A DNA stretch of 64,000 nt from Candidatus Bathyarchaeia archaeon. GTDB lineage: Archaea > Thermoproteota > Bathyarchaeia > Bathyarchaeales > Bathycorpusculaceae. Shown in pieces: positions 17,297-32,366 of this stretch; the stretch's first letter is position 1; the number at the start of each line of letters is the position of its first letter. The notes beneath the pieces are model-generated. The model saw nothing but the letters and a program-made list of their open reading frames with translations. It did no database searches and had not been told where the DNA came from. The translations under genes and the position numbers were made by a program. Where the stretch lies: NCBI GenBank assembly GCA_038727135.1, contig JAVYWL010000002.1:224001-288000 (forward strand). Reading direction: 5' to 3'.

Positions 17297-17848
17297 CTAC
17301 CCTCTATAGTTTTTGGTCGAATGGTTATGGTTTGTTTTTGCTTGATGTTTCTTTGCGGTTTTTATGATGTTACGGATTTCTATTGCTATTATTAAGGTTG
17401 CCGGGATTATTATTAATAGTGTGAAGCCTATTGGGGTTCTTACAAAATAGCCTAGATATCCTATGTAAGGGATTATGGCTATTACCTTTCCTATGACGTC
17501 TTGTTTTTTGACTATCCATGTGTCTGGGTCTTCGTTGGCGTCCCCTTTTGTTATGAAGCCTTGGCTTGTTATGCCTATTATTCTGTGGGTTACCGTTGTG
17601 GGATGTTCTGTTTCAACTTTGAAGCATATTATGTCGCCTACCTTCAAGGTTTCTGGGTTGGCTGGTTTTATGACGACTATGCTTCCGACCGGGATGGTGG
17701 GCTCCATGCTTCCTGTATGGACAGGTTCGTAGAGGGTGTCACCCCAGAGCGAGACAGGTCTGTAGAAGACTAGGAAGATTATGAGGAATGTGGCTATGAG
17801 GGCGTATATGGCTATTTTTAGGATTTTCCTAATTTTTGGGTTTAGCAT
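17297..17848 (-). CDS. sipW: Signal peptidase I, SipW/Sec11 type
   Basis: TGSMEP, VTHRI and TKGDAN motifs; terminal TM helices; next to TasA-like genes. Confidence 0.9.
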   Translation of the reverse strand: MLNPKIRKILKIAIYALIATFLIIFLVFYRPVSLWGDTLYEPVHTGSMEPTIPVGSIVVIKPANPETLKVGDIICFKVETEHPTTVTHRIIGITSQGFITKGDANEDPDTWIVKKQDVIGKVIAIIPYIGYLGYFVRTPIGFTLLIIIPATLIIAIEIRNIIKTAKKHQAKTNHNHSTKNYRG

Positions 17849-18408
17849 TTCATACCATCATGAGTTGGTGGAAAGCGCACTGTTATAGCTATGTAGGCTG
17901 TTACTGTTAGTCCTTGATATTCGTTTCCGGCTGTGGCGGGCATCCATACGCTGATCTGTAGTGTGACGCTGTCTTTTGGTGGAACAGCCCTCTTGCCATA
18001 AACTTTTATACCTTCTGCTAAATTGCTTAGGGTTCCGTTGTAGAGGAGGTTTGGTTTTTCTCGTCTACCTTTTCCAAGCTCTAAAATTTCTATTTGCAGT
18101 CCATCGGCTAGATGGGTGTCTCCTTCAAAAGTGGCATTGAGCATGCAAATTCGGAAGGGCAAATCTCCAACATTAATCAGTCTTAAATATTTTGTGACCT
18201 TTGGGCGTCCAGGGTAGAAGTGACCGTCCACATCTGGATGGAAAAGGGGAACTTTTGGCGAGATCTCCATGTCAAATTTAATTTTCTTCCCGAAATAAAT
18301 TGTGCAAGCTGACGCTGTAGGATCATCAGAAGCTAAATTTAGGCTTATGAATAACAAAAGGATTGTCAATAATATCAGTACGGCTTTTTTCTTATACACT
18401 TTAATCAA
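17842..18408 (-). CDS. Secreted beta-rich accessory protein of the SipW/TasA cluster
   Basis: N-terminal signal peptide; PG..., NVG and MPATAGNEYQG segments typical of TasA/CalY-fold proteins. Confidence 0.7.
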   Translation of the reverse strand: MIKVYKKKAVLILLTILLLFISLNLASDDPTASACTIYFGKKIKFDMEISPKVPLFHPDVDGHFYPGRPKVTKYLRLINVGDLPFRICMLNATFEGDTHLADGLQIEILELGKGRREKPNLLYNGTLSNLAEGIKVYGKRAVPPKDSVTLQISVWMPATAGNEYQGLTVTAYIAITVRFPPTHDGMKC

Positions 18409-18488
18409 TCTCCTTAGAGGGTTTTAATAAAAAATGGGGATTTTAGGCTGGTTGCAGCGGTGCAGTCTGACTTGTTATTTTTGCTCTT

Positions 18489-19091
18489 TTATGGGTTTTG
18501 AGATAGTAGAAATGTGAATGTGATGCTGAGGGTATCTGTCTGTGCTTGGTTGTCAACACCACCGTGTGCCCACCAGTTATAGATTTCTACGACAAAGTCA
18601 ACACCGCCATTAGCCTCAATTGGTTCGTTGATATCCATAAAGCTTGTTGGAAGATCTGTTATGAGCCCTTCAAAGATCTTTTTATCTCCAGTGCTAAACC
18701 AGCCGCTGTGATCGTAGTCAAGGAACAGTATTAAGTAGAGCACGTCGTCCAGTTCGCCTGTGTCAGCGCTGGTATCTCCCGCCTCTATTTCCGGCTCTGT
18801 GAGACCATTTTCTTCGCTGACAACTACGATGTTACTTATGTCTAGATAGCCCATTATAGTGCCAATGTTTTTGAGCGTTAATGAATAAAGTGGCTGATTT
18901 CCAGGTCTTAGATTGTTCCAAGTGAAGGTTACTGGCACTCCGTTATGGTCGTTTATTGTCAAGTCAAGTGAACCCGCACTGAATGTTGTTATGGTTGTTT
19001 CCGTGTCGCTGAATTGGGAGTATGTTCCCCAGCCGACTGCCAAGGCTACTAGTCCGATTGCCAGTATTCCAACCAATATTTTCCTGTTCAT
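18489..19091 (-). CDS. TasA/CalY family fibre subunit with SipW-type signal peptide
   Basis: GTYSQFSDTE cleavage motif, FSAGSLDL, PG, KNIG and DNQAQTD. Confidence 0.88.
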   Translation of the reverse strand: MNRKILVGILAIGLVALAVGWGTYSQFSDTETTITTFSAGSLDLTINDHNGVPVTFTWNNLRPGNQPLYSLTLKNIGTIMGYLDISNIVVVSEENGLTEPEIEAGDTSADTGELDDVLYLILFLDYDHSGWFSTGDKKIFEGLITDLPTSFMDINEPIEANGGVDFVVEIYNWWAHGGVDNQAQTDTLSITFTFLLSQNP

Positions 19092-19130: not shown

Positions 19131-19685
19131 CTAAGCCTGTGTCAGAAGGAACGTTATCGTAAAGCCAACAACATCGCTCTGTATAACATCGTCCACAGAC
19201 TCGTCAATACTGTAATTAACTGTGAATGTAACTGAAGCGCCAGCATTCAACGGATAGTTGGCTAAGCCTCCGCTCAAGACGCCATTGGCATATCCCTCGT
19301 AAACTACAGTTCCATCAACGGTGATTTTCAAGTATAGATTTTCAGCAAGCTCCCCATCAGGTTCCGTGTCGTCAAGCACAAGTTCTGGCTCCGTCAGCCC
19401 ATTCTCATTGTCAACAAGGTCGCTAAATGATATGGAGAGTTTGCCATTAACAGACCCGATGTTCTTTATAACCACGCTTTCGCTACCGCTGCATCCGGGC
19501 AGCAGGTTCGCTAGATCAATCTTCCAGCTTACTGGGTCATCGTCGCCGACCTTCAAGTTCAATGTTCCAGCAGTAAAAGTCGCCGTAGTCGTTTCCGTGT
19601 CGCTAAACTGGCTATAGGTTCCCCAGCCGAGAGCAAAGCCAACAAGCCCAATAATGAATAGGCTTACCAATATTTTCTTGTCCAT
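19131..19685 (-). CDS. TasA/CalY family fibre subunit with SipW-type signal peptide
   Basis: MDKKILV...GTYSQFSDTE, FTAGTLNL, LLPG and KNIGS; paralog of the downstream gene. Confidence 0.88.
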   Translation of the reverse strand: MDKKILVSLFIIGLVGFALGWGTYSQFSDTETTTATFTAGTLNLKVGDDDPVSWKIDLANLLPGCSGSESVVIKNIGSVNGKLSISFSDLVDNENGLTEPELVLDDTEPDGELAENLYLKITVDGTVVYEGYANGVLSGGLANYPLNAGASVTFTVNYSIDESVDDVIQSDVVGFTITFLLTQA

Positions 19686-19714
19686 TTCCGCATCACCTCT
19701 CCCTTCTCCTCTTT

Positions 19715-19831
19715 TTCGGGGACCTATCATCGCGAGACGCTTTAACGGGGGCTAATCCCCATTTTAGTCCCCCGGACGCCAGCACATTTAACGTGCCCCA
19801 GCGTCAAGGCACGGGTTAGGCCGGCCTAACC
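19715..19831 (-). promoter_or_regulatory. Structured GC-rich 5' leader and palindrome upstream of the tasA operon
   Basis: 18-bp perfect palindrome at 19814-19831; hairpins CGGGGGACTAA/TTAGCCCCCG and GCAC/GTGC; GACGCT has two alternative partners. Confidence 0.6.
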
Positions 19832-19927
19832 ACATAGACTATTCTAAACACCAATAGCCTAACCAAAAATATAATGGAAAAAGTAATTTGAAATAAGCGT
19901 TACGAAGATTTTTTCTAGAAAATTCCT

Positions 19928-21046
19928 CTAGTCATACAAGCGTTTCCTATCGTTACATATGTGTTTGCTGCAGACCAGAAATGGAATAGTCAACAAAATG
20001 AATATTCCAAGTAGCATGAAATAGCCAAAATAATTCTCCTCGGCGATAAGAAGAACTGTGGGCACGAGATTGACTATTCTTCCAAGCATTAAGCCCACCT
20101 CCATTAGAACTAGGATGCTTGCATAATGTTCTCGACTGAAGGAGTTTCCATAGTGGGCGAACCATGAAATGGTAAAGGCGCTTGCCAAACCAGACAAGGC
20201 GGATAAAAGCACTATCTGCTGTGGTGCGGTGGCATGCCCTATTAGGAAAAACCATACAGCGTTTAGCACAACGCCTATCACGGCGAATTCAACACGTCTC
20301 ATCTTGACGTCTGAAAGCCAGTTAACCAGAAAAGTTATGGCGGAAACCACAAGGCTTGTTAAGGCTAGGACAAAACCCATCCTGGAAGTTGTTTCAGAAA
20401 TCCTATTAATGAAAAGGGGATAAGCCAACCAATAGGCCTCGGACATACCAAAAATTATGAAAGTTATGAAGAAAATGGAGATTCTACGCCCCCTTGGGAT
20501 TAACAAACCATGAGCCTCACGTCTAAACTTCACTCGCGTAAAAAAGATTAAAGCAGCAAAATAAAGAGCCACACACAAGCCCAGAAGAATTGGAAAACCA
20601 AAATTTTCTATGATTAAGCCGCCAACCGCTGGACCGGCAATGCTAGCAATTGATGGAATTATTATGGAGAATAGACTTACTGAACGTGCCCTGACGGTGG
20701 ACTCGCTTAACCTAAACTGTAGGAGATTGAAGCTTGGCCAAAAAGTGGCTATGCCCAACCCATAAGTGACGCCCAAAACCACCGGATTTTTAACATAAAT
20801 TAGAAGTATGTAGAAAACCATTGTGAAGAGCACGCCGAAGCATATCACTCGCTCAAAATTTCTAACAAACCTAAGCAGAGTTATGGGTAAAAGCCCAATT
20901 ATCGTGAAGGTGACCAGTAGCAAAACCGCTATTTGGATAATGCTCAGTCCAAGTGTCACGTAGTAGACTGGCAGGAACATGCTTGTCATGTTGCTGGAAA
21001 AGAAGTATATGAAGGAAGCAACCCCAAGATTTTCAAAATCTCCCAT
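19928..21046 (-). CDS. MFS transporter
   Basis: About 12 hydrophobic helices; IAGPAVGG and NWLSD motifs. Confidence 0.85.
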   Translation of the reverse strand: MGDFENLGVASFIYFFSSNMTSMFLPVYYVTLGLSIIQIAVLLLVTFTIIGLLPITLLRFVRNFERVICFGVLFTMVFYILLIYVKNPVVLGVTYGLGIATFWPSFNLLQFRLSESTVRARSVSLFSIIIPSIASIAGPAVGGLIIENFGFPILLGLCVALYFAALIFFTRVKFRREAHGLLIPRGRRISIFFITFIIFGMSEAYWLAYPLFINRISETTSRMGFVLALTSLVVSAITFLVNWLSDVKMRRVEFAVIGVVLNAVWFFLIGHATAPQQIVLLSALSGLASAFTISWFAHYGNSFSREHYASILVLMEVGLMLGRIVNLVPTVLLIAEENYFGYFMLLGIFILLTIPFLVCSKHICNDRKRLYD

Positions 21047-22049: not shown

Positions 22050-23615
22050 CTACAAAGTTTCTCTTAAGATTTCGAGGATGTCTCTGACGGCTACTTTTTC
22101 TTCCACTTCCAAAACTTTTATGGCGTCTTCAAGGGTTGTCACGCAGAAGGGACAAGCCACAGCTATAACCTCAGCACCAAGCTCCAAAGCCTCTTTAACA
22201 CGGTTTACGCATGGTCTCTTTTCCGGTTCGGCTTCCTCTGTCCAGACTCTTCCAGCTCCGCCGCCGCAGCAGAAGCTGGCTTCCCTTGTTCGCTTCATTT
22301 CGATAAGCTCTAAACCTTTTATTGATTGTAGAATTTGCCTTGGCTCTTCGTAGATATGGTTTCGCTTGCCCAAGAAGCATGGGTCGTGGTAGGCAACCCG
22401 CTTGTTATAAGGTTTTGTGGGTTTAAGTTTGCCCTTTTCTAGGGCTTCAGCCAAAAACTGCGTGTAGTGCTGAACGTTTAGCGCCAAATCCTTGTAGGGC
22501 TTGTCGTTTTTGAAGGTGTTGTAGCAGTGGGGCGAAACCGTAACAATGCCGTCTGCATTAAACTTCTGGAACACCGCCACATTATGTTCTGCAAGCATTT
22601 CAAACAAACCCTTCTCGCCCATGCGCAGTATGTGGTCTCCACAACACCACTCCTCTTCGCCTAAAGTGGCATAATCAACGCCAAGCCTGTCAAAAATTGT
22701 TGCCATCGTTCTGGCTATTTCCCTGTTCCTAACGTCATAGGCGGTTGAACAGCACGCAAAAAATATAACAGCAGCCCTTGTAACATTTGGATATGTTTTA
22801 ACGGTTAAACCTTCAGCCCAAGCCATCCGTCTACTTTGATGAGTTCCCATTGGATTGTGATATTTCATAACGCTTTCAAGAACATCTTTAACTGTTCTTG
22901 GGATGGCTCCCATTTCTACCAAGAGACTGCGGTCCTCAACCACAGAATTTGCACAATTAACAAGCTTTGGACAGAAAAGCGTGCAAGAATTGCATGAGGT
23001 GCAGAGCCAAACATTATCCGCCATGGGCTTAAGCCTTTCATCCAAGCCCTCATCCCGCGAATCGGCAATAAACCTATAATTGGCTGTCAAAGCCGAAGGT
23101 CCAAGAAACCTTTCATCTATGGCTGCTGGACAAGCAGAATAGCAAATTGAACACTTTGTGCAAAGTGTCAAATCCCAGTACTTTTTAAGGTCTTCAGGCG
23201 ACTGTGTAAACTCTACGGGCTTTTTGAAGGCTTCCGCCGGCTTGATGAGCACTGTTTTGATTTTTCTGAAGTTTTGGAAGAAGGGCTGTATGTCAACCAC
23301 CAAATCCTTAATGACTGGAAGATTTGACAGAGGCTCGATGGTTACCGTGTCGGCGTTTAAGTCTAAAACCTGCGTGTAACATGCCAGCATCGGCTTGCCA
23401 TTAACATTTACTGCGCAGCTTCCGCAGATTCCCATTCTACATGAGTGCCTAAAAGTAAGGGTCTCATCAAAATTCTCCTTAATATAGTTAAGCACATCTA
23501 GGATAGTTGTTCCACGGCGAATTGGCACCTTAAACGTGGAAATGTAACTCCTATTCGTGTCTGAGTCGTATCTGCGAATTCTGAATTCAACAACCTTAAC
23601 AACCTCACCATTCAT
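22050..23615 (-). CDS. Succinate dehydrogenase/fumarate reductase Fe-S subunit fused to two CCG domains (TfrB-like)
   Basis: SCRMGICGSC 2Fe-2S motif, two 4Fe-4S motifs, then WCCG and FCCGGG HdrB/D-type domains. Confidence 0.9.
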   Translation of the reverse strand: MNGEVVKVVEFRIRRYDSDTNRSYISTFKVPIRRGTTILDVLNYIKENFDETLTFRHSCRMGICGSCAVNVNGKPMLACYTQVLDLNADTVTIEPLSNLPVIKDLVVDIQPFFQNFRKIKTVLIKPAEAFKKPVEFTQSPEDLKKYWDLTLCTKCSICYSACPAAIDERFLGPSALTANYRFIADSRDEGLDERLKPMADNVWLCTSCNSCTLFCPKLVNCANSVVEDRSLLVEMGAIPRTVKDVLESVMKYHNPMGTHQSRRMAWAEGLTVKTYPNVTRAAVIFFACCSTAYDVRNREIARTMATIFDRLGVDYATLGEEEWCCGDHILRMGEKGLFEMLAEHNVAVFQKFNADGIVTVSPHCYNTFKNDKPYKDLALNVQHYTQFLAEALEKGKLKPTKPYNKRVAYHDPCFLGKRNHIYEEPRQILQSIKGLELIEMKRTREASFCCGGGAGRVWTEEAEPEKRPCVNRVKEALELGAEVIAVACPFCVTTLEDAIKVLEVEEKVAVRDILEILRETL

Positions 23616-23628
23616 GTACACTTCCCTC

Positions 23629-25329
23629 CTAATACTTTCTGGCGGCAGGCTGCCACTTCGTAATCGTAACTGGAATGTAGTCAAGTCTTGGTCCATCCAC
23701 GGTATAATATGCCAGTGTGTGGACAAGCCACTTCTCGTCGTCGCGGTTTGGATAGTCAAGCCTTGAGTGAGCGCCCCGTGACTCGGTTCTCGCCAACGCG
23801 CTTATAATTGTGACTTCAGCCAAGTCCAACATAAAGTCAAGCTGGAGGGCAGCTGTTAACCCCGTGTTGAAGGTTTTGCCCTTATCCTCAACCTTTATGT
23901 GTTTAAAGCGCTCCTTAAGCGCTCTAATCTCTTTTAAGGCGCCTTTCAGTTCCTCGCCTGTTCTGAAAATCCAAACTTTAGTGTTCATAAGCCTCCTCAT
24001 CTCATCCCTCAATTGTGGGACTCTCTCGCTGCCTTCGCTTCCAAGGATTCCATCGAAAACCCGCTTCTCTTCGGCTAAAGCCTTCCCCTCTGGAAATTCG
24101 TGGAAACTGGCAGACATGGCGTACTTTGCCGCTTCTTCCCCGGCGACGGCTCCAAAAACTAGGCATTCAGCCGTCGAGTTTGTTCCAAGCCTGTTGGCGC
24201 CATGAAGGCTTAAACATGAGCACTCGCCAGCAGCATACAAACCCCTAATTGGCGTCTCGGTTCTTATGTTGGCTCTAATCCCGCCCATAGAATAGTGGGC
24301 TGCCGGACGAATCGGTATAGGCTCCTTAACGGGGTCAACCCCGGCAAGCTTTATGGCGACATCTCTTATGAGCGGTAGCCTCTCGTTAATCTTCTCCTCG
24401 CCTAAGTGTCTAAGGTCCAAAGCAATGTATGGTCCATAAGGGCCTTGGAAGGCTCTCCCTTCGAGGATTTCTGTTTGCTCAGCCCTTGAAACCACGTCGC
24501 GGGGAGCCAACTCCATCTTTTCCGGGGCATAGCGCTTCATGAAGCGCTCTCCAAGGGCATTATATAGGTAGCCGCCCTCGCCCCGCGCGCCTTCGGTGAT
24601 CAGCACGCCCGACGGCACCAAGCCTGTTGGGTGGAACTGGACAAACTCCATATCTTCAAGAGGCGCGCCAGCCCGATAAGCCATCGCCATGCCGTCGCCC
24701 GTTGTTGTGTGGGAGAAGGTAGTAAACTCGTAAATGCGCTCGTGTCCGCCAGTAGCCATCACAACAGCCTTAGCCTTAAAGGCATGCATCTCTCCTGTTT
24801 TCAACTCTATGGCTGTTAAGCCCACTACGGCATCATCTTCAACTATTAGCGAAGTGGCAAACCACTCGTCATAAAACTTAACATTGTCGTAGGTTGTGGC
24901 TTTCCCATACAGCGTGTGCATCTCGTGAAAACCAGTCATGTCAGCCGCGAAGCAAGCCCTTGGATACGTATGTCCGCCAAAGGGGCGCTGGTCTATTTTC
25001 CCATCCGGTGTGCGGCTCCATGGACAACCCCAATGCTCCATCAAAATGATTTCTTTGGGGGCTTGCCTAACAAAGAATCCCACAACATCCTGATCCGCTA
25101 GGTAATCAGCACCCTTCACGGTGTCAAAGGCGTGCAGGTCGAAAGAGTCCTTTTCCCGCATGACAGCGGCTGTTCCACCCTGCGCACAAACAGAATGCGA
25201 CCGTAACGGGTGAAGCTTTGAAATAACCGCTATGTCCAGCTTGTTGCTGAACTCTGCGGCTGCAACGGCAGCCCTCAAACCAGCCAAGCCCGCGCCAACA
25301 ATAACTATATCATGGGTGTGCTTCTCCAT
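23629..25329 (-). CDS. sdhA: Succinate dehydrogenase/fumarate reductase flavoprotein
   Basis: [35 protein letters not shown] and HGANRLG motifs. Confidence 0.93.
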
Positions 25330-25482
25330 TAACGATACCATCCAAACTTAAGGAATAGGAATACCCTAGTTTAATCTTCTAGCCTTTATATTTTTCCAGA
25401 GCAAACCCAAATGTTTAAACTTATTTTAAGGCGAAGCCAATAAACTGTTAAAAGCCACTCTTGGCTAGTTAAAGGGCGGGAA

Positions 25483-31382: not shown

Positions 31383-32258
31383 TCACCACTGCTCCTCAAT
31401 TGTTTTTAATATGCTTACAGCGTAGAAGGTGTCCTCAAAAGTGGATATTCCAATGTCTGACCTTGCAAATCCACCGTTTGCGTTTTGGCATCTTAACACA
31501 AACTCGGCTGTCTGCCTTGGATACCGCAAGCTTTCGCCGAGAAGATTAAGCGTTGACACTCCGTAATATACATGTTCCATGAATGGTGTGGAGCCGTCCG
31601 GCACAACGGTGAAGCCTCCATAAGGCTTTTCGCAAGCCCTAACATATCCAAGCGTATTCTTAAGCAGCTTAACCTGATAGCCCAAATTGAAAAGCGAAGC
31701 TACAGCATGATAAGTTGAATTCAGGTTTGAGTGCCCGTAGGCTCCAAAACCGCCGTCATTATTTTTGAAGCTCAACAGCCAATCTATAATTTTCTCACGG
31801 TTAACTTTTACATTAATCATGTTGGCAAGGTCAGTTGCCATAAACACTGATAGAAATTCTGAGGCAACCTCAGCATAAACGTCAACGGTTCCAAACTCGC
31901 CCCTGATAATTGGCAAAGAAAGAACAAACTTTTTCAAGCTCTCCCTGTCCGGCTCTTTGCCGCATAAATTTAGGGCTTCAGCCACATAATAATGCGAGTA
32001 AAGGCTGTCTGGAGTAAAGCCACGCAGCCACTCAACAGTCTTTTTAACATTTGGAAAAGGAAAGCCCAACAAATGCAAGATTGCCAGTCCATAATACGTG
32101 TCCTGTGCGTTTGATTCGGTTCCCTGACAGAAAGTGTATCCACCATCCTCATTCTGCCTACTAACAACATAGCCAACGACACGCTTAATCAACAAGTCTG
32201 TAAACTGCCTATTCACCAAAAGAGCTAACCGCCCCGCTTCCCGCAACCCAATACCCAC
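31383..32258 (-). CDS. Prenyltransferase/squalene-oxidase repeat (alpha/alpha barrel) protein
   Basis: Repeats RQNEDGGY, FKNNDGGFG, CEKPYGGF and CQNANGGF, each followed by a T/V-Y/F-Y/H-A/G helix. Confidence 0.82.
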   Translation of the reverse strand: MGIGLREAGRLALLVNRQFTDLLIKRVVGYVVSRQNEDGGYTFCQGTESNAQDTYYGLAILHLLGFPFPNVKKTVEWLRGFTPDSLYSHYYVAEALNLCGKEPDRESLKKFVLSLPIIRGEFGTVDVYAEVASEFLSVFMATDLANMINVKVNREKIIDWLLSFKNNDGGFGAYGHSNLNSTYHAVASLFNLGYQVKLLKNTLGYVRACEKPYGGFTVVPDGSTPFMEHVYYGVSTLNLLGESLRYPRQTAEFVLRCQNANGGFARSDIGISTFEDTFYAVSILKTIEEQW

Positions 32259-32279
32259 CTAAACGCATTTTAACACTGG

Positions 32280-32341
32280 GTAGAAGCTATCAGCCCTCGC
32301 GCACAAAGAAGCGAGGGCGGTTAAAGGCGAGCTTCATCGCC
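32280..32341 (-). ncRNA. Fluoride riboswitch (crcB motif)
   Basis: Minus strand reads GGCGATGAAGCTCGCC-TTTAACC-GCCCTCGC...GCGAGGGC-TGATAGCTTCTAC: P1 GGCGA/TCGCC, pseudoknot GAAGCT/AGCTTC, P2 hairpin and CTAC tail. Confidence 0.9.
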
Positions 32342-32366
32342 TTGAAGCTGGTAAAAAGCCATGAAT

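Follow-up and report, generated by a model that had tools for sequence, protein, structure and literature searches.

In bacteria, ydaO-type riboswitches for cyclic di-AMP (c-di-AMP) control cell-envelope genes, and riboswitches for cyclic dinucleotides control surface and matrix genes. Long structured leaders on bacterial mRNAs for S-layer proteins, pilins and secreted proteins or proteases stabilise the mRNA, and preQ1-II, a further point of comparison together with SAM-II, has a hairpin embedded in loop 3. To our knowledge, archaea have very few known classes of cis-regulatory RNA. A search of Rfam 15 and of the literature found no cis-regulatory RNA described for archaeal surface-filament or biofilm-matrix genes. 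The subject here is a candidate from a 64,000-nucleotide (nt) stretch of a Candidatus Bathyarchaeia archaeon genome (NCBI GenBank assembly GCA_038727135.1, 1.55 Mb, completeness 94.7%); this whole stretch, positions 224,001 to 288,000 of contig JAVYWL010000002.1, is called the window. The candidate is the leader of an operon for TasA-like proteins and a SipW-like signal peptidase. Its place is the minus strand of the 242-nt gap that separates a gene for a major facilitator superfamily transporter (19928-21046) from the tasA-like ATG at 19685. Archaeal bundling pili are reported to consist of TasA-like subunits (PMC9245690). The operon resembles that system in its TasA-like subunits and SipW-like peptidase, whereas that study concerns the protein filament and the present analysis concerns the leader RNA.

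The predicted fold of the leader is two tandem H-type pseudoknots, modules A and B, and the leader represents a new RNA family whose general kind is known and whose structure is well supported. The window holds the tandem, two-pseudoknot version of the module B class. The parts of the two modules and the tract that follows them are as follows.

19792-19813, minus strand: P1 hairpin, CGTGCC (19808-19813) paired with GGCACG (19792-19797) around the loop TTGACGCTGG, from an RNAalifold consensus.
19775-19805, minus strand: PK1, GACGCTGG of the P1 loop (19798-19805) paired with CTGGCGTC (19775-19782) across the linker TTAAATGTG (19783-19791), from covariation.
19746-19774, minus strand: P3 hairpin, CGGGGG-A-CTAA / TTAG-CCCCCG with a bulged A at 19768 and the loop AATGGGGA at 19756-19763, from covariation.
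19741-19745, minus strand: second TTAAA box (GUUAAAG), directly 3' of P3, present in most loci found with the covariance model though not required there.
19732-19740, minus strand: P4 mini-hairpin GCG-TCT-CGC, whose length in relatives varies between 9 and 40 nt.
19724-19731, minus strand: junction box GATGATAG; the GA before TGATAG and the whole box recur in model-found loci from other classes.
19717-19722, minus strand: C-run TCCCCG, the 3' strand of PK2, with TGGGGA of the P3 loop (19756-19761) as partner, from a two-state match.
19686-19716, minus strand: purine-rich ribosome-loading tract, read from the sequence, with a similar tract in long and short leaders.
19692-19699, minus strand: Shine-Dalgarno sequence GAGGTGAT inside the purine-rich tract, read from the sequence.

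A MAFFT alignment of 74 sequences (A1) was used to follow the helices of module A. P1 was paired in 96.2% of cells, with variants that include U-G in 47 cells and U-A in 8, and PK1 in 81.7%, with changes on both sides in seven of its eight pairs. Over the whole of A1, 92.8% of cells were paired, versus 38-49% once the 3' partner was slid by 1-3 columns. An alignment-free test on 54 distinct pairs gave -6.53 kcal/mol for own PK1 partners versus -4.25 kcal/mol for swapped ones, and none of 2000 permutations did as well, a count that overstates the evidence because related sequences are not independent. PK1 has the form of a classical H-type pseudoknot, in which the eight P1-loop nucleotides beside the 3' arm have as their partner the segment that follows GUUAAAUGUG. 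A 166-nt stretch also had a more stable fold than shuffled versions of itself (z = -2.57), which did as well in 1 of 200 cases.

A preliminary description of the leader, made from the letters alone, had proposed that GACGCT pairs either locally with GGCGTC or distally with AGCGTC. The sequence words that it quoted all occur on the minus strand where it had placed them, and the local helix is real and conserved, with many compensatory variants. The GCAC/GTGC hairpin that it drew inside this helix was dropped for lack of conservation on its GTGC side. What is conserved instead is P1, which makes GACGCTGG/CTGGCGTC a pseudoknot through the P1 loop; the 5' arm of P1 lies 5' of the 19715-19806 span of that description. 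The distal partner is as strong as PK1 in the window's clade (-10.2 versus -10.4 kcal/mol) but is lost without compensation in AGGCATGG variants (-2.4 kcal/mol), where the PK1 sequence differs. A switch between PK1 and the distal pairing is therefore possible in this clade and is not a trait of the family.

Module B was analyzed in 82 distinct sequences. P3, which the preliminary description had drawn as CGGGGGACTAA...TTAGCCCCCG, was borne out: 99.8% of cells were paired and double changes occurred in four of eight pairs, in an alignment (A3) that was fitted to the model and favours the structure. The compensatory variants are CGGGGC/GCCCCG, CGGAGG/CCTCCG and CCGGGG/CCCCGG. Of the 43 distinct P4 segments, 40 form a hairpin of 3 base pairs (bp) or more. 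The P4 arms gave -8.79 kcal/mol with their own partners versus -4.68 kcal/mol when swapped (0 of 2000 permutations as good), and because P4 ranges so widely in length, the distance between the conserved boxes differs by as much as about 30 nt.

PK2 was scored by a contingency count; its two subtypes align out of register column-wise. In 77 of the 82 distinct sequences (6 of them judged by eye), the P3 loop and the C-run match in one of two states: a GGG loop has CCC as its counterpart, and GGGG(G)A has xUCCCC. This match may rest on few evolutionary events. The 5' arm of P3 is constant between the two states. Loop and C-run thus change together while the arm does not, which supports PK2 over a pairing of the 5' arm with the C-run. 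The preliminary description had allowed both, and only the loop pairing survives: the pairing of the P3 5' arm with GGTCCCCG was rejected, as the CGGGGC and CGGAGG variants carry no compensation. Judged from these sequences, PK2 is probably a physical pairing. The hallmark of an H-type pseudoknot, loop nucleotides beside the 3' arm that pair downstream, is seen with covariation in PK1 and as the two-state match in PK2. Module B (P3, GUUAAAG, the variable P4, GAUGAUAG and the C-run back to the P3 loop) is the ancient core of the leader, and it ends 20-35 nt 5' of the start codon, just ahead of the unpaired purine-rich Shine-Dalgarno tract.

The unpaired letters of the leader (GUUAAA twice, ACUA and GAUGAUAG) are conserved far more than base pairing requires, although several of the conserved boxes were imposed by the search pattern, which for metagenomes required GUUAAAG after P3 and the TGATAG of the junction box. 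A conserved aptamer-like fold with invariant unpaired nucleotides is the generic mark of a riboswitch, and the leader has it. One idea is that the UUAAAG and GAUGAUAG strands around P4 might form a kink-turn-like junction read by an L7Ae-type protein; it draws on the rules for K-turns.

Relatives of the leader were collected from genomes and metagenomes. The tasA-like genes of four same-genus genomes carry it, nearly identical in two (G003 and G006) and diverged in G002, and G006 has an additional, diverged copy. The window's own genome has a second, short copy at C1:20007-20074 on the plus strand (locus L002, 1501-1572), ahead of a 250-residue secreted protein that matches no Pfam or NCBIfam family. 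This copy consists of P0, a hairpin that abuts P1 in the window, then CGTGCC-GAGGGAG-GGGCACGTTAAATATACCC and the same purine tract. The short form in general is a hairpin with a G-rich loop, then GUUAAAUAUA, CCC and the same purine tract. Its C-run never varies, and it appears to be module B without P4.

Among 401 genomes of the order, 20 contained the pattern of a first hairpin plus GTTAAA, at 25 places in all, and a reversed-pattern control gave 5; three of the 25 (L024, L036 and L040) are without the other features. Another pattern, too loose for so large a collection, was run on 596 Gb of genome contigs, and among the 120 matches listed nearly all were chance, bacterial ones; only one (L049, from a Candidatus Bathyarchaeia archaeon) was a true short-form leader. 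A strict two-box pattern identified 106 stretches of metagenome contigs, of which 80, with 76 distinct cores, form the comparison set. All but one of the 80 (L217) carry features beyond the pattern, such as CGGGGGACT, and match the second-module model R2 at E <= 0.001. Across the metagenome stretches, the genome loci and the window, the second-module model matches 98 of 99 sources.

Covariance models were then applied to sampled genomes. Within the genus, 6 of 14 genomes matched the long form, two of them through weak short forms; within the order, 9 of 151 did, and these come from four families. In samples of 151 genomes each, module B alone was found in 6 genomes for the class and in 7 for the phylum; four of the 7 belong to other classes, and there too it precedes genes for secreted proteins. 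Each genome with the motif has one or two copies.

The genes behind the leaders are consistent in kind. Among 78 long leaders, 75 have an open reading frame (ORF) within 19-58 nt whose product begins with a lysine-rich and then hydrophobic, signal-like N-terminus, although the rule for picking starts favoured such ORFs; the protein families are evident all the same. A scan of 38 products gave seven Peptidase_M73/TasA-like proteins above the cut-off and one just below it, two trypsin-like proteins, and 28 with no Pfam family; many of the last have a common '...AYAHWS..I.G.V.TG' start. The genes of the window's operon are as follows.

19131-19685, minus strand: TasA/camelysin-like gene with a SipW-type signal peptide, first in the operon, product MDKKILV..., matching PF12389 (Peptidase_M73/camelysin) at E = 1.7e-8.
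17297-19091, minus strand: remainder of the operon, from profile matches.
18489-19091, minus strand: second TasA-like gene, from a profile match.
17842-18408, minus strand: secreted protein without an assigned family.
17297-17848, minus strand: archaeal signal peptidase I or SipW-like gene, matching TIGR02228 at 118 bits.

The product of the first gene also matches TIGR04088, the model for SipW-dependent signal peptides, at 21.9 bits versus a cut-off of 19. The GATGATAG box contains an ATG (19728-19730, minus strand) that shares the reading frame of the tasA-like ORF and extends it to 199 residues (19131-19730). A gene call from this ATG may begin 15 codons early, and relatives do not keep the frame.

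The conserved letters could in principle act as DNA, with the palindromes as operator sites and GTTAAAT as a TATA box for transcription initiation. P0 and P1 are near-perfect palindromes, GGTTAGGC occurs in direct and inverted copies, the TTAAATATA of the short form is like an archaeal TATA box, and repeated boxes and TCTAGA-like palindromes are present further upstream. The variants in P1 and PK1 do not behave in this way. They contain 143 G-U cells versus 28 A-C cells, an excess that fits RNA of the gene's strand and not a protein-bound DNA palindrome. The PK1 helix is interleaved and non-palindromic, and its sequence is free to change while pairing is kept. With P4 anywhere between 9 and 40 nt long, no fixed promoter geometry is preserved. 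Transcription that began about 25 nt after TTAAATATA would start inside or past the conserved Shine-Dalgarno sequence, and a contig from an RNA library contains module B. A DNA-level element is therefore highly unlikely.

That contig, of 125 nt, comes from contigs of one sediment metatranscriptome and spans 19662-19782 at an identity of at least 95%; RNA contigs show neither ends nor strand, DNA is possible in the library, and the contig enters the ORF by only 24 nt. Contig ends in runs X1 and X3 are not readable as transcript ends. In X1, from sediment, a relative's 455-nt contig with module B (over 19739-19776) has a depth of 465 and the others 12-75, which hints at very high expression of one leader-bearing transcript. 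Two raw-read metatranscriptomes (X5 and X6) had no reads on the stretch in the roughly 3% of each run that was read, which is no test of expression.

The promoter and the 5' part of the leader were predicted from the following features.

19913-19920, minus strand: TTCTAGAA, a palindrome 5' of the predicted promoter, a possible transcription-factor site read from the sequence.
19890-19897, minus strand: predicted TATA-like box CTTATTTC; sister loci keep CTTATT(T) about 25 nt before GGTTAGGC.
19869-19876, minus strand: second TATA-like candidate, CATTATAT.
19857-19864, minus strand: GGTTAGGC, predicted 5' end of the transcript; the word is kept about 25 nt 3' of TATA-like boxes at many loci.
19835-19861, minus strand: predicted 5'-proximal hairpin TAGGCTATT / AATAGTCTA, from the minimum-free-energy fold of the full leader.
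19814-19831, minus strand: P0 hairpin GGTTAGG-CCGG-CCTAACC, which abuts P1, from computed folds.

Related loci have TATA-like boxes about 25 nt 5' of a conserved GGTTAGG-type word, ahead of all hairpins. Transcription from a promoter near 19890-19897 is therefore predicted, and the spacing of this box and GGTTAGGC gives a predicted leader of about 180 nt. The predicted promoter and the RNA-library contig together place the structure in the 5' untranslated region, as we infer. The 5'-most hairpins are not conserved in sequence: the TAGGCTATT / AATAGTCTA hairpin is not kept in the sister clade, and at the position of P0 other loci have different GC-rich hairpins, some with G-U pairs.

Comparison with known families began with c-di-AMP, since the preliminary description had likened the leader to a reduced ydaO riboswitch and suggested a search of Rfam for ydaO-yuaA and the c-di-GMP classes. 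The likeness is in the order of the words: CGGGGGA, GGGG and CCCCG precede a purine-rich ribosome-binding site in both. The window has no Rfam 15 match for the leader at E up to 10, ydaO-yuaA included, and neither the window nor the related loci match c-di-GMP-I or c-di-GMP-II. Among 18 related loci one (L185) matches RF00379, at 21.3 bits versus a cut-off of 38 (E = 0.15 to 0.46), and this locus aligns end to end with the model over CGGGGGA, GGGG.U.A..CC and CCCCG. The match is treated as a noise-level resemblance. RF00379 pairs CGGGGG with the distal CCCCG, and the three independent compensatory changes found here are all in the proximal P3, with no following change in the distal C-run; the central arms of ydaO are also absent. 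The hosts lack the matching enzyme: the diadenylate cyclase (DAC) domain PF02457 was found in none of 6 motif-bearing genomes (90-99% complete), in a search whose control was positive for 11 of 14 known genomes, including three archaeal ones. The GGDEF domain PF00990 was not found in the window's own genome. A diverged ydaO-type or other cyclic-dinucleotide riboswitch would suit both the surface genes downstream, as in bacteria, and the two-module build, which is loosely like the pseudo-twofold ydaO fold. Membership in the ydaO class nevertheless fails on every tested feature, namely score, helix pairing and host cyclase, and we consider this explanation hardly credible.

The short form gave 20.6 bits with SAM_alpha (SAM-II, RF00521; cut-off 36) over 'CCGUG..CACGUUAAA..AAAGAGG'. 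Parecho_CRE, an unrelated viral element, gave 25.8 bits in the same small-region scan, in which unrelated families reach E < 0.01. The SAM-II match, outscored by an unrelated element, is noise-level. Common to SAM-II and the leader are a GC-rich stem followed at once by an A-rich strand, and a 3' strand that returns to the hairpin loop beside the ribosome-binding site. SAM-II differs in that the 8-nt loop here is far too short for a triplex and the downstream genes, for secreted proteins, are unrelated to S-adenosylmethionine; with the score under 36, membership was rejected. The resemblance underlines the look of an H-type pseudoknot aptamer, with its A-rich strand after stem 1. The P4 of module B lies inside loop 3 as the embedded hairpin of preQ1-II does, whereas the genes here are unrelated to queuosine. 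From both families the leader differs in that the 3' strand of its pseudoknot is a C-run 5' of the Shine-Dalgarno sequence and not the Shine-Dalgarno sequence itself.

A hairpin, then GUUAAAU and a strand back to the hairpin loop is also the layout of the pistol ribozyme, and the purine-rich junctions are conserved. A self-cleaving or processing element of this kind would shorten the mRNA from its 5' end. The ribozyme families of Rfam 15, pistol included, gave no match to the window or to the short form at E up to 10, and the RNA data have no pile-up of ends, though only contigs covered the site. A processing role is very improbable. The literature searched describes no such leader; the supplements of one bioRxiv preprint, which possibly list a motif cluster, were outside that search. 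A comparison with about 100 related leaders found conservation and covariation, the absence of which the preliminary description had named as refuting it. Its proposal of a new archaeal cis-regulatory RNA is upheld by a motif that is conserved, covarying, strand-specific and always before a start codon, while its reading of a reduced c-di-AMP riboswitch is not.

We give about an even chance to a role of the leader as a cis-acting, post-transcriptional recognition domain. It would act in cis, after transcription, on mRNAs for secreted or cell-surface proteins, and the module would recognise an effector, a protein or a small ligand other than c-di-AMP. The folded state would keep the C-run off the neighbouring G-rich ribosome-loading tract, and this sequestration of the C-run could set translation, mRNA life or both. 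The strongest argument for recognition over mere stability is that the unpaired letters and the pseudoknot geometry are kept across classes while the 5'-most hairpins vary. A more specific version, in which module B is the aptamer or protein-binding core of a new, archaea-specific regulatory RNA class that passes a signal to matrix filaments and secreted proteases throughout the phylum, is tentative and rather doubtful.

The window itself shows that the organism does use cis-acting RNA sensors: an Rfam scan identified a fluoride riboswitch (RF01734) at 32274-32350 on the minus strand, at 48.6 bits versus a cut-off of 34. It is likewise a pseudoknotted cis-acting RNA, with a sequence and gene context unrelated to those of the leader. 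It lies directly 5' of a 291-residue ORF (31383-32258) with prenyltransferase/terpene-cyclase-like repeats and not a CrcB-type channel.

Several observations weigh against a recognition domain. The weakest point is that no expression platform is evident, as no U-run follows the structure. In nested-only ensembles the Shine-Dalgarno tract is 63% unpaired on average over 70 leaders, and 37% in the window. The C-run pairs weakly both with the P3 5' arm and with GGGA at 19700-19703, each at a probability of about 0.25-0.3, with about 0.27 for GGGA. The gene context gives no candidate ligand. In a genome from another family of the order (G026, contig C11) a tasA-like gene has no leader, which makes the leader dispensable. 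A decayed long leader in G011 (C7:17496-17606; L033 / L276; 60 bits) has no recognisable gene behind it. The start of the transcript is a prediction from promoter-like words. The limits given above on the permutation counts, the PK2 match, the pattern-imposed boxes and fitted alignment, and the RNA libraries count on the same side.

An anti-Shine-Dalgarno action of the C-run was rejected as the main mechanism, with only 4 bp to GGGA in the window and poor pairing elsewhere. In G011 no TasA-like protein was found with the window's protein as query, and its leader looks like a remnant after gene loss. The G026 gene (locus L013) is preceded by a tRNA-like sequence and an ordinary TATA box and then by the same type of purine-rich Shine-Dalgarno tract.

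The lack of a visible expression platform and the mostly open Shine-Dalgarno sequence would suit a leader that senses nothing. As a constitutive stabiliser or translation enhancer, the double pseudoknot would shield the 5' part of very abundant surface-filament mRNAs against exonucleases, and it might also leave the loading tract open. The downstream genes all encode secreted, probably abundant, structural or hydrolytic proteins, and in one metatranscriptome the contigs of relatives that contain the leader have depths between 75 and 465, a crude measure. The A-rich UUAAA after each stem would fit the loop-3 strand of a self-stabilising H-type pseudoknot. The stabilising leaders of bacterial S-layer and secreted-protein mRNAs are similar in being long and folded, in preceding abundant extracellular proteins, and in having no obvious terminator or helix that masks the Shine-Dalgarno sequence. 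They differ in that unpaired nucleotides, loops and pseudoknot geometry are kept here across classes of the phylum, a conservation that plain stabilising hairpins do not need. The variable 5'-most hairpins and the conserved, start-proximal module B are the reverse of what protection of a 5' end predicts. The motif is also rare and patchy (4-6% of sampled genomes) though such genes are common. Constitutive stabilisation is possible, at well under an even chance, and the recognition domain is the preferred explanation.

With about 100 sequenced examples, two pseudoknots, covariation that is clear and genes for secreted proteins consistently behind it, the motif is ready for filing as a new RNA family. 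Its hosts are uncultured Bathyarchaeia-like lineages in which regulation is otherwise hard to study. Module B (about 60 nt) and the tandem form (about 100 nt) are short enough for in vitro transcription and for culture-free study of matrix control. If the proposal for module B is true, the class couples a cellular signal to TasA-like pili and secreted proteases across an archaeal phylum.

Other features lie around the leader. At related loci, TCTAGA-like or repeated boxes occupy the same relative place as TTCTAGAA. Some of these loci (L240, L170 and L203, for example) have GGTCTAATGG repeats, GTTTCTGAA repeats and TCTAGA-like palindromes 60-150 nt 5' of P1. The boxes stand 5' of the predicted TATA box and vary by clade, and they suggest a separate transcriptional control of the same genes. 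In one clade (L166, L170, L176 and similar loci) the position of P0 is filled by a GTGCC-loop-GGCAC hairpin like that of the short form; leader modules seem to duplicate in tandem. Elsewhere in the window, at 22050-25341 on the minus strand, neighbouring genes resemble, from their translations only, the two subunits of an enzyme of the thiol:fumarate-reductase/succinate-dehydrogenase type, one a flavoprotein and the other an Fe-S protein with a fused CCG domain.

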